This document shows positions 27,001-30,000 of a DNA stretch of 64,000 nucleotides, piece after piece; the stretch's first letter is position 1, and each line of letters starts with the position of its first letter. Source of the DNA: Tagaea sp. (GTDB taxonomy: Bacteria > Pseudomonadota > Alphaproteobacteria > CACIAM-22H2). Position numbers: made by a program. Location of the stretch: positions 3,035,346 to 3,099,345 of the forward strand of contig OZ245864.1 in the NCBI GenBank assembly GCA_965229215.1. Reading direction: 5' to 3'.

Positions 27001-30000
27001 GCTCGCGCAGCAGCGCCGCGATCGCGGCGATATCGGCCGACTGGCCCGTCGAATGCACGATCATTGCGGCCCGCACTTTCGGGCCGATCCGGGCAGCCAC
27101 CTCGTCGGGACCGACATTGTAGGAACCGGGCCGGGAATCGACGATGCGGGGCACGAGATTGTTGAGCACGATCGCCGAGATCGAACCGGGATCGGTGATC
27201 GGCGAGACGAGCACCTCGCTGCCCGCGGGCAGGCCGAGCGCGGCAAGGGCGACGTAGAGCGCCGACGTGCCGGTCGCGACCGCGTCGGCGTGCCCGCCGC
27301 CCATGAAGCGTTCGAACGCCGCGCAATAGAGGCTTTCGAAATGCCCCTGATATCCGGGATCGACGCCGAGCGGGCCATAATGCTCGAACACGCGATCGAC
27401 CCACGCCCGTTCCTCCGGGCCGAGCGCGAAGCGCGCCGGCATCGGTGCCGTGCGGACCTTCGGTCCGCCGTCGATCGCGAGCGCGGCCGCCCCGCTCATC
27501 CGCGGATCGGCGGCAGGCGGGCCAGCATCTCGTCGAGGCCGAGGCCGTGGACGTCGAGCAGCTGGTCGTGCGTGCCGTAGAAATGGATGAACTCGTCCTT
27601 CAGGGAGAACGCCGTCACGACGCAGGGCGAGCGCTCGTCGCAGGCGATTTCCTTCACCCGGGAGCCGAGACCGCCATGCGGAACGTGCTCCTCGATGACG
27701 ACGACGCGCTTGTGGCCGGCGAGCGCGCGCGCGACGCCCTCGCGGTCGAGCGGCTTGACCGTGTGCGCCGAATACAGGGAGACGGACTCGCCGCGCGCGG
27801 CAAGCCGATCCGCGAGCTCGGCCGCCCGCTTCATGATCGGACCGTAGGCGAGGATGCAGGTGTCCGTTCCCCGGCGGATCGGCCGGAGCTTGCCGAAGAC
27901 GAACGGCGCGTCGATCCCGTCGGTGAAATCCGGCTCGCCCGCCTTGCCGATGCGCAGATAGACCGGCCCCTCGCGCTGCTCGGCGCAATAGCGCGTCGCG
28001 GCGACGAGTTCCGCCGGATCGCACGGCGCGAGGACGCGCATGCCGGGAATCGCGGAGGCGACCGCGACGTCCTCCATCGTGTGATGGGTGCCGCCGAGCG
28101 TGGAATACGTCACGCCGGCGCCCATTCCGACGATCGTCACCGGAAGGTTCTGGTAGCACAGATCGTCGCGGACCATCTCGAACGGACGATAGAGCGTGAA
28201 CGTCGCGATGGTGTACGCGAAGGGCTGCATGCCCTTCAGCGCGAGACCCGCGGCGATCCCGATCATGACCTGTTCGGCGACGCCGACATTGATGAACCGC
28301 TGGGGATACTCCTCGCGGAACTTGTTCATGCTGCCGGCGGGCGATATGTCGGCGACGACGATGTAGATGTTCGGATTGCCCTGGCCGCACCGGTAGAGCG
28401 CTTCGGCGAATGCGTTTCTCATGCCGCACCGCCGAGCTCGGCCAGCGCGATCGCCAGCTCATCCTTGTTGGGCGACCGATAGTGCCAGATGGGCTGGTTC
28501 TCCATGTAGGAGACGCCCTTGCCCTTGGTCGTCTTCGCCACGACCATCATCGGCCTGTCGGTCCTGCGGTTCATCACCGCGCCGAACAGCGCCGCCGAAT
28601 CGTGGCCGTCCACCTCCACCGAATCCCATCCGAACGACCGGAATTTCTCCGCGACGGGATAGAAGCTCGGGTGCGTCTGGGATGTCCGGCCGAGACTCTG
28701 GAAGTCGTTGTTGTCGACGAAGGCGACGAGATTCGAGACGCCGAGCGAAGAGGCCATCATTGTCGCCTCCCAGGTCGATCCTTCCTGGACCTCGCCGTCG
28801 GACAGGACGACGTACACGAGCCCCGGCCGCCCCTGCGATTTCTCGGCATAGGCCGCGCCGACCGCCATGGAAAGCCCGTGGCCGAGCGCGCCGGTCGATG
28901 CCTCGATTCCGGGAACCCCGTAATCGGGGTGGCAGCCGAGGCGGCCGCCGGCGGCGCAGTACCGGTCCAGATCCGTTCGCGACAGCACGCCGAGGGATTC
29001 GAGGATGACGTACTGGATCATGCAGCCGTGGCCCTTCGACATGATGAACATGTCCGGCGACGAGTTGTCCGGGTTCCGGCGCATCAGGGCGGCGTAGCAG
29101 AGATCGACGATTTCCGTGCAGGAGAACGCGCCGCCGACATGCAGCGCCTGTACCTGCTGCGAGACCTCCAGGATGCGCCGTCGGAAGCGCGCGCAGCGCG
29201 CCTTGGCGGCGGCCGCATCGAATGCATTCTTCATCGAATCTGATCCCATCTGGCCAGCATGTTCAGGTAATCAAGGTCCACCAATACTCGCCGGTATAGT
29301 CGGCCTCGTCGAAGATTTTCTTCCAGCCCTCCGGATAGTCGTGCGTGAACGCGGTCAGCACCCACGATTCGAAGATCGCCCGCTCTTCCGGCGTGCGGTA
29401 GCTGTCGACCTGGACGAACTTGCCGCGGATCGCGACGCGCTCGATCTCGCGCAGCGCGGCGATCAGGTCCGGGCGCTCGAGATTGTGCAGCGTGTTGATC
29501 GCCAGGACGACATCGAAGCTCTTGTCGGGAAACGGGAGGCTGCGCGCATCGCCGAGATGGAGGCGGCCGACCGCTTCGGGCTCGCAGTTCATCAGCGCAT
29601 AGCGCGAGACGTCGAGGCCGAAGGCCTCGAGCCCCGGACAGACGCCGACGAGGTCCTTCACCAGGAAGCCCTTCGCGCAGCCGATGTCGAGGACCCGCTG
29701 GCCCGGCCTCAGGTCGTAATGGGCGACGATGTCGCGCGCGACCGGAATCCAGCGTCCGTCGTACCGGTATCCGCCGTAGCCGACGTCGCGGGAGCCGTCG
29801 AAATAATCGCGCCCGTACTCGCGCGACAAAGCGATCATTTCCGGCGTCTTCGCGCTGGCGCGCGCCTGGACGTTGCGCTTCCCCTTCGGAAGGCTCCGCA
29901 GAAGGTCGTATTCGGCCATCAGGCATCTCCTCGGTCGTTGCCGGTACCCAGCGCGAACCGCCGCAAGCCTGCGGCCCGGCAACGCGCCGGATCGAGCATG

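Follow-up and report, generated by a model that had tools for sequence, protein, structure and literature searches.

A split transketolase gene pair in a glycan operon

We analysed a stretch of 64,000 nucleotides from a Tagaea sp. genome (contig OZ245864.1, positions 3,035,346 to 3,099,345; referred to here as the window), in which two adjacent genes encode the two parts of a transketolase (TK). TK-N encodes the subunit with the thiamine diphosphate (ThDP)-binding PP domain, and TK-C encodes a subunit with the PYR and C-terminal domains (Table 1). The stop codon of TK-N overlaps the start codon of TK-C (ATGA at 28422-28419), and the stop codon of TK-C overlaps the start codon of the next gene (ATGA at 27499-27496), which encodes a DegT-family aminotransferase (DegT) and is translationally coupled to TK-C. 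On the other side, 28 nt separate TK-N from the end of an upstream methyltransferase gene. The pair is part of a dense series of co-directional genes on the minus strand, running from ~38.1 kb to 26.3 kb (roughly 12 kb) and encoding, in this order, a 367-aa protein, a GmhA-like SIS-domain isomerase, a 155-aa protein, two short-chain dehydrogenases/reductases (SDR_A and SDR_B), a nucleotidyltransferase-PfkB kinase, a GFO/IDH/MocA oxidoreductase (GFO), a homologue of nucleoside diphosphate (NDP)-sugar dehydrogenases, the methyltransferase, TK-N, TK-C and DegT. A preliminary description of this DNA had reported separate genes for the N and C subunits of a transketolase with overlapping stop and start codons, flanked by an aminotransferase and a methyltransferase inside a sugar-tailoring operon; the coordinates, the Pfam domains and the ATGA overlap all hold, as do both flanking genes and the placement of the pair in a co-directional glycan operon.

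The gene pair and its neighbours have a G+C content at third codon positions of 0.86-0.89, typical of real genes in a sequence of 65% GC, and identical gene calls were made in a metagenome contig that carries a 99%-identical homologue. An exact-sequence look-up of the TK-C of the window returned no match. A scan of 25800-38600 for promoters and terminators gave counts no higher than those of shuffled controls and was uninformative. The best PDB match of TK-N is the N chain of 6YAK (E=7e-50) and that of TK-C is 6YAJ (E=7e-55), both from the split transketolase of Carboxydothermus hydrogenoformans; split transketolases are also present in 90 plasmid records (out of 72,556 plasmids searched). Because the closest solved structure is itself split and plasmids carry further examples, splitting of a transketolase into two genes is ordinary, not unusual.

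Replaced substrate residues in the active site

We aligned 73 family members with Escherichia coli TktA, human TKT, the C. hydrogenoformans split enzyme and DXS (residues are given in E. coli numbering). All three domains of a transketolase fold are present: PP (PF00456), PYR (PF02779) and C-terminal (PF02780). His26, His66, His100, His261, Asp155 and Asn185 of TK-N are conserved in all 73 members, and so are the ThDP/Mg2+ site, the cofactor-activating Glu411 and the catalytic His473.

According to the literature on the E. coli and yeast enzymes, Arg358, Ser385, His461 and Arg520 form the phosphate site, and Asp469 is the residue that reads the 2-hydroxyl of the aldose acceptor. Arg358 is the sole retained residue of this four-residue site. 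His461 is replaced by Gly and Arg520 by Lys in 73 out of 73 members, and Ser385 by Ala in 65 (this column adjoins an indel and is hence less certain). Asp469 has become Leu in 69 members and His in the other four. Further replacements are Gln118 to His and Gly262 to Tyr (73/73 each), and Gln474 to His (72/73).

Ser385, His461, Asp469 and Arg520 are present both in E. coli TktA and in the C. hydrogenoformans enzyme, which has the same two-subunit layout and the same cofactor residues as the window pair, with a C subunit ~36% identical to TK-C, and which also keeps Gln118 and Gln474. As this split enzyme retains every canonical residue, the replacements are not due to the split. A catabolic split transketolase of Enterococcus likewise has canonical His461, Asp469 and Arg520 (position 385 is Ala). 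Against the transketolase equivalog model NF004559, a full-length model with a cutoff of 488 bits, TK-N scores 217.9 bits and TK-C 176.8 bits, and even their sum is below the cutoff. Because the residues that define the substrate were tested and found replaced, the pair does not, as judged from its sequence, belong to the canonical transketolases (EC 2.2.1.1), and the labels currently given to these genes ('transketolase' or 'DXP synthase') are likely to be misleading in metabolic reconstructions.

A conserved nucleotide-sugar module

Members of the family are 63-99% identical, and TK-C has thousands of metagenomic homologues at ~65-72% identity. In a scan of one genome per species, the family was found in ~249 out of 185,579 species genomes (~0.13%). 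The closest genome is a Tagaea sp. metagenome-assembled genome of Rhodospirillales (88% identity). The carriers are scattered sporadically over several phyla: Alphaproteobacteria, with a few cultured Bradyrhizobium among them, make up the majority, and others belong to Beta-, Gamma- and Deltaproteobacteria, Acidobacteriota, Nitrospirae and Gemmatimonas. This sporadic distribution argues against a housekeeping role. The best plasmid-borne relatives are less than 41% identical. A locus from a record titled Frankia sp. RB7 (L067) has the module in the order seen in Bradyrhizobium loci, with near-identical percentages of identity to the window proteins, and this record may be mislabelled or contaminated.

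Partner genes were counted in 45 loci with at least 8 kb of flank on both sides (Table 1). The usual block comprises the GmhA-like isomerase, a transaldolase, the two SDRs, the kinase/nucleotidyltransferase, the GFO oxidoreductase, the dehydrogenase homologue, the methyltransferase (upstream of TK-N), TK-N and TK-C; in the window the transaldolase is a relocated member of this block. The TK pair and the methyltransferase are the invariant core of a conserved nucleotide-sugar module of 10-11 genes. The gene directly after TK-C on the same strand encodes DegT in 35 and an SDR in 29 out of 77 loci (64 together), and DegT and/or SDR genes are present in 45 out of 46 full-flank loci. Such neighbours are what one would expect of a transketolase whose product bears a new keto group in need of amination or reduction.

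Table 1. Genes of the transketolase module in the window, and the number of loci (out of 45) in which each was found
Gene product	Position	Strand	Support	Loci
SIS-domain GmhA-like ketose-phosphate isomerase	36377-36961	minus	PF13580; gmhA models 1e-13, below cutoff	
SDR_A, nucleotide-sugar SDR	34697-35719	minus	Pfam; closest structure 6VO6, 1e-36	39
SDR_B, nucleotide-sugar epimerase-type SDR	33687-34691	minus	Pfam; closest structures UDP-glucose 4-epimerases	39
Nucleotidyltransferase + PfkB kinase, bifunctional, HldE-like	32137-33687	minus	CTP_transf_like then PfkB	39
GFO/IDH/MocA oxidoreductase	31199-32125	minus	Pfam	41
NDP-sugar dehydrogenase homologue without catalytic Cys	29919-31202	minus	all three UDPG_MGDP_dh domains	41
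Class-I S-adenosylmethionine methyltransferase, 218 aa	29263-29919	minus	Methyltransf_11/25 domains	45
TK-N, ThDP (PP-domain) subunit, 271 aa	28419-29234	minus	ATG at 29234; PF00456 Transketolase_N, E=1e-34	44
TK-C, PYR + C-terminal domain subunit, 308 aa	27496-28422	minus	PF02779 2.3e-32; PF02780 5.6e-20	
DegT/DnrJ/EryC1 pyridoxal phosphate aminotransferase	26297-27499	minus	PF01041 1e-53; PDB matches are NDP-sugar aminotransferases	
Short transaldolase	20479-21255	minus	PF00923 7e-45	at least 32

Two loci illustrate the range of the module. The chromosome of Bradyrhizobium manausense (CM132115.1, 880213-901124; locus L090) holds it as a co-directional operon of 11 genes, in the order SIS isomerase, transaldolase, SDR_A, SDR_B, nucleotidyltransferase-PfkB kinase, GFO oxidoreductase, dehydrogenase, methyltransferase, TK-N, TK-C and SDR; here an SDR gene replaces DegT, and a radical-SAM/SPASM gene is divergent from the operon. 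Another locus (L002, on a contig of JGI 3300081833) is a natural variant, 87% identical to the window and syntenic with it throughout. L002 has no transaldolase, SDR_A, GFO oxidoreductase or dehydrogenase homologue and has gained a NUDIX gene; it keeps the isomerase, SDR_B, the kinase/nucleotidyltransferase, the methyltransferase, both TK subunits and DegT. The genes missing together in L002 suggest a separable sub-module that acts on the side chain of the sugar. Because L002 has neither the transaldolase nor the dehydrogenase homologue, the transketolase needs neither of them, which weakens both the idea that it supplies sedoheptulose 7-phosphate (S7P) and the idea that it extends an aldehyde.

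The dehydrogenase homologue carries the motif PGLGISGGNLERD (GGNLERD), which aligns to GGSCFPKD of the UDP-glucose dehydrogenase 4A7P. The catalytic Cys is replaced by Asn in 52 out of 56 homologues, and therefore no uronic acid is to be expected from this enzyme by the usual mechanism; the other NDP-sugar dehydrogenase of the window (7808-9088) keeps the Cys (GGHCI). The Cys-less dehydrogenase is always paired with the GFO oxidoreductase, and the two are missing together in L002. We considered a reading of dehydrogenase, GFO oxidoreductase and DegT as a WbpA/WbpB/WbpE set, and rejected it for the missing catalytic Cys; it is also contradicted by the Bradyrhizobium loci examined, where the dehydrogenase/GFO pair lacks a DegT gene within 10 kb, and by L002, which has DegT without that pair.

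A signature shared with other split transketolases

We tabulated the same positions for 13 comparison enzymes, including split transketolases from other loci. The family signature (Tyr262, Gly461, a non-acidic residue 469 and Lys520 within LR.GK.GEP, with His118 and THH) was found in only two of them, the split transketolases of Methylovirgula and Paenibacillus. The remaining 11 lack it: these are canonical and catabolic enzymes, DXS, carrier-protein-type enzymes and a split transketolase from a glycan locus of Azospirillum B510. Arg520 is retained in the catabolic split transketolases of Enterococcus, Agrobacterium, Deinococcus and Phaeobacter and in the enzyme from a Streptomyces LysW/carrier-protein cluster, and none of these five has the combination Tyr262/Gly461/Lys520.

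Both signature relatives lie after genes for CDP-glucose 4,6-dehydratase. On plasmid pHY1 of Methylovirgula sp. HY1 (L095:2964-8939) the order is rfbF-rfbG-SDR-rfbH-TKN-TKC, and the neighbours rfbF-rfbG-SDR-rfbH make CDP-4-keto-3,6-dideoxyhexose, the acceptor that is branched by YerE in yersiniose synthesis (PMC9306805). On a plasmid of Paenibacillus cellulosilyticus (L096) the order, from Pfam, is rfbF-rfbG-C-methyltransferase-[SDR::TK-N fusion]-TKC-TylF-glycosyltransferase. The fusion gene (L096:5097-7004) encodes 635 aa, a nucleotide-sugar SDR joined to TK-N, and is annotated merely as 'SDR family oxidoreductase'; the C-methyltransferase before it is TylC3-like. We group the window family and these two relatives as glycan-type split transketolases, which share the signature and lie among nucleotide-sugar genes beside a partner (DegT or SDR) that could process a carbonyl. 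The SDR fusion and both contexts place the signature class at the level of nucleotide sugars, with NDP-4-keto sugars at hand, and the occurrence of these relatives in CDP-hexose pathways points to a nucleotide-sugar carbonyl as the acceptor.

The split transketolase on plasmid pAB510f of Azospirillum sp. B510 (L091:6872-15603) is a third kind found in a glycan locus: it has Gly for His461 and keeps Arg520 and Asp469. Its neighbours encode a kinase, a NUDIX protein, an epimerase, an aldo-keto reductase, a TylF methyltransferase and glycosyltransferases.

A proposed function and its alternatives

The TK pair is probably a ThDP-dependent carboligase that transfers a two-carbon (C2) unit at the level of nucleotide sugars in the synthesis of a glycan precursor. 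The best reading of the sequences is a heteromeric enzyme of transketolase fold, dedicated to glycan precursors and not to the pentose-phosphate pathway. In the proposed route, the GmhA-like isomerase and the HldE-like kinase/nucleotidyltransferase (with the transaldolase where present) would produce an NDP-activated heptose or octose, on which an SDR or the GFO-type oxidoreductase would expose a carbonyl. A donor would form dihydroxyethyl- or hydroxyethyl-ThDP, and the C2 unit (hydroxyacetyl, or acetyl in the case of a pyruvate donor) would be moved from ThDP onto the carbonyl of the NDP-sugar. A ring ketone is the most likely acceptor, and its product would be a sugar branched at a tertiary alcohol; with a terminal aldehyde, the less likely acceptor, the chain would instead grow by two carbons. 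In the window the coupled DegT would then transaminate the new keto group, and in the Bradyrhizobium variant an SDR would reduce it; the methyltransferase would methylate the product, and the finished sugar would enter a polysaccharide exported by the Wzm/Wzt ABC transporter of the window. The preliminary description had proposed a dedicated transketolase that transfers a C2 ketol unit onto an aldose phosphate to make a higher or branched sugar: the dedicated enzyme and a branched or longer sugar are what is best supported, whereas the replaced phosphate site and Asp469 speak against an aldose phosphate as the acceptor.

Several points weigh against this proposal. The enzymes of the module that work on sugar phosphates (transaldolase, GmhA-like isomerase and kinase) may allow a role before nucleotide activation, and a phosphate could be bound by Arg358 together with the Lys that replaces Arg520. 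Both SDRs resemble epimerases rather than the dehydratases that would yield a free keto sugar. The signature relatives are ~37% identical to TK-C, with functions inferred from context alone.

Three known systems bear on the choice of acceptor. In the synthesis of yersiniose and erwiniose, YerE/YerF and ErwE/ErwF carry out ThDP-dependent branching of CDP-4-keto-3,6-dideoxyglucose followed by reduction (PMC9306805). As with YerE/YerF, the ThDP enzyme of an O-antigen locus would attach an acyl group to an NDP-4-keto sugar, and a partner enzyme would process the carbonyl; the Methylovirgula relative occupies the position that yerE has in yersiniose clusters. YerE, however, is a single-chain member of the decarboxylase (acetolactate-synthase-like) superfamily and uses 2-keto acids, whereas the window enzyme has a transketolase fold and two subunits; TPP_enzyme_N, M and C are not among the Pfam matches of TK-N and TK-C, which are only of transketolase, E1 and DXS type. 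The pair may thus work like YerE without being a member of the YerE-type enzymes. Split-gene transketolases have also been proposed, and never shown, to branch a keto sugar with a hydroxyacetyl group on the way to miharamycin and amipurimycin, according to a review that counts 13 putative split-gene cases, all in Streptomycetes and none shown in vitro (PMC12247030). Like the window pair, the miharamycin and amipurimycin (Mih/Amc) enzymes, which we compared by the description in that review alone (PMC12247030), are two-gene transketolases in a sugar-tailoring cluster, proposed to add a C2 ketol to a keto sugar and so form a tertiary alcohol; unlike those Streptomyces nucleoside antibiotic genes, the present ones lie in Gram-negative polysaccharide loci, within another conserved module and with a defined active-site signature. 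By analogy, the pair probably works like YerE or like the proposed Mih/Amc transketolases.

The third system is AziC5/AziC6 (with homologues Vzb and Fic), a split transketolase that acts with a sugar-aminotransferase-like enzyme in the biosynthesis of diaminodihydroxyheptanoic acid (DADH) (PMC9570651, PMC11726168). Here too a split transketolase acts on a non-phosphorylated carbonyl, a DegT-family enzyme transaminates the alpha-hydroxyketone and the genes are adjacent; the Gln118His replacement and the THH motif are common to both. In place of a sugar nucleotide, AziC5/AziC6 accept a derivative of glutamate semialdehyde bound to a carrier protein, and this carrier-protein type retains His461 and Arg520 and has none of Tyr262, Gly461 and Lys520. 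No genes for a LysW carrier protein or ArgB/ArgC-like proteins are among the annotated genes of the window (compare L092). The system suggests a chain extension in which the Cys-less dehydrogenase stops at the aldehyde, the transketolase adds a C2 ketol and DegT aminates the product, on the model of DADH biosynthesis; it is a special form of the carboligase proposal, with another acceptor. The Asn found for the catalytic Cys in most dehydrogenase homologues is in its favour, as are the characterised AziC5/AziC6 enzyme, which extends an aldehyde before a DegT-like aminotransferase acts (PMC9570651, PMC11726168), and the adjacent DegT, TKN and TKC genes of the Streptomyces carrier-protein cluster. 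But L002 keeps the methyltransferase, the transketolase and DegT without the Cys-less dehydrogenase, the Methylovirgula and Paenibacillus enzymes occur in 4-keto-sugar pathways without an aldehyde-forming enzyme, and the carrier-protein type differs at the signature positions just given, so that we find chain extension doubtful. The same DADH logic of transketolase and DegT-like enzyme, which acts on a non-sugar aldehyde (PMC9570651), would also allow the transketolase, methyltransferase and DegT to make a substituent other than a sugar (an amino-polyol or an acyl group), which would be joined to the glycan afterwards. This is hardly credible given the strict linkage of the pair to nucleotide-sugar enzymes, and neither the carrier-protein gene nor the kinase/reductase set nor the ligase genes of DADH synthesis were found among the window genes.

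Alternatives at the level of sugar phosphates draw on the other half of the module. The co-occurring transaldolase, GmhA-like isomerase and HldE-like kinase/nucleotidyltransferase parallel LmbR, LmbN, LmbP and LmbO of the lincosamine octose pathway (PMC4351081), and with Arg358 retained the transketolase might, together with the transaldolase, build a non-standard ketose phosphate (such as that of a deoxyketose, a methylated ketose or an octulose) that is later isomerised, phosphorylated and activated. We consider this improbable, as Asp469 and all phosphate-binding residues but Arg358 are replaced, the transketolase always stands with tailoring genes (methyltransferase, DegT/SDR) at least five genes away from isomerase and transaldolase, L002 has it without a transaldolase, and in a related enzyme TK-N is fused to an SDR. 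An ordinary transketolase, either a split housekeeping enzyme or an extra copy that boosts S7P for heptose synthesis, is very unlikely. The fold and the catalytic histidines are those of a transketolase, the operon has heptose-type activation genes and no full-length tkt gene lies within the window; yet the scores are far below the NCBIfam equivalog cutoffs (218 versus 488 bits), the phosphate site and Asp469 are lost, the family is rare, also within Bradyrhizobium (a handful of species), and among the loci examined it never occurs outside a glycan cassette. The supply of S7P that the preliminary description had also envisaged is thus unlikely, given the replaced residues and the transketolase of L002 that has no transaldolase beside it.

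The lincosamine (GDP-octose) pathway, with LmbR, N, P, K, O, M, L, Z and S (PMC4351081, PMC12945683), is a close parallel to the rest of the module. Compared by enzyme types, not by sequence, the two share a transaldolase, an SIS isomerase, a kinase, a nucleotidyltransferase, an SDR epimerase, a dehydrogenase-like and GFO pair and DegT, and the Cys-less dehydrogenase with its GFO partner recalls LmbL/LmbZ. From this parallel, the proposed carboligase may start from an NDP-heptose or NDP-octose. A transketolase is absent from the Lmb pathway, as is a counterpart of the methyltransferase, and, unlike Lmb, the window has a PfkB/HldE-type kinase fused to the nucleotidyltransferase and encodes no phosphatase.

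We also considered a relation to bradyrhizose. An 11-gene operon, its genes unlisted, is needed for the bradyrhizose O-antigen of photosynthetic Bradyrhizobium (PMC4743980), and the equal size of the B. manausense operon and the arithmetic of C8 + C2 = C10 suggested a link. It is unsupported: no photosynthetic Bradyrhizobium was found among the best 80 genome loci or among the named matches of at least 84% to the Bradyrhizobium protein. Our literature searches found no paper on a split transketolase, or on a transketolase with O-antigen, heptose or bradyrhizose.

Implications

To our knowledge, YerE-type enzymes are the only ones known to branch bacterial surface sugars with the help of ThDP. 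The window pair and its relatives could, tentatively, be the first class of transketolase fold that forms C-C bonds on nucleotide-activated sugars, and could catalyse the defining step of a widespread, so far unrecognised route to a methylated sugar that is branched or of higher carbon number (C9-C10). If so, the sugar would be aminated in the version of the window and would occur in O-antigen-type polysaccharides of Alphaproteobacteria and several other phyla, and such a carboligase class, possibly using hydroxylated donors on ketone acceptors, would be of interest for biocatalysis. The conserved pathway of 10-11 genes probably leads to an undescribed monosaccharide. Cultured carriers are available (Bradyrhizobium manausense and B. 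campsiandrae), and the locus and its relatives give a sequence signature for candidate sugar-branching transketolases.

The surrounding polysaccharide locus

Some features of the operon proteins are worth recording. The domain order of the nucleotidyltransferase-kinase is the reverse of that of HldE (nucleotidyltransferase N-terminal, PfkB C-terminal), and its matches to the rfaE models (2.9e-40 for domain I and 1.5e-23 for domain II) both fall short of the equivalog cutoffs. Of the ~55 open reading frames of the window scanned against Pfam, none was found to encode a GmhB-type phosphatase. The 155-aa protein has, by eye, a hydrophobic N-terminus, possibly a membrane helix. Read by eye, the motifs of the transaldolase suggest a true transaldolase (Glu/Phe) and not an enzyme of the aldolase type.

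Near the operon we find, besides the transaldolase, genes for a radical-SAM/SPASM protein, an FkbM methyltransferase, a family 2 glycosyltransferase (GT2) and a Wzy_C protein. Elsewhere in the window are rmlA, rmlD, a WbpM-like dehydratase, a second DegT and the canonical NDP-sugar dehydrogenase, along with two family 4 glycosyltransferases (GT4), a carbamoyltransferase, an N-acetyltransferase and Wzm/Wzt ABC-transporter genes. The region is a very large polysaccharide locus whose product is probably an O-antigen.

Proteins of 367-682 aa without a Pfam match are encoded at 36992-38095, 38185-40233 and 40125-42101 on the minus strand and at 23564-24958 and 25068-26255 on the plus strand. Such proteins recur beside the module in four other loci (L002, L006, L021 and L084), and they may be unrecognised glycosyltransferases or polymerases. 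The glycan locus has two radical-SAM/SPASM genes on the plus strand (21289-22425 and 58682-59623); homologues of the former accompany the module in ~15 loci. The carbamoyltransferase gene and an aminoglycoside-3-N-acetyltransferase-like gene lie side by side (42344-44729, plus strand), and the family of the latter also adjoins the module in another locus (L004); this pair may carbamoylate or N-acetylate the amino sugar. An autotransporter beta-domain protein (16156-17274, minus strand) and a pentapeptide-repeat protein (50253-51449, plus strand) are also encoded within the polysaccharide region.

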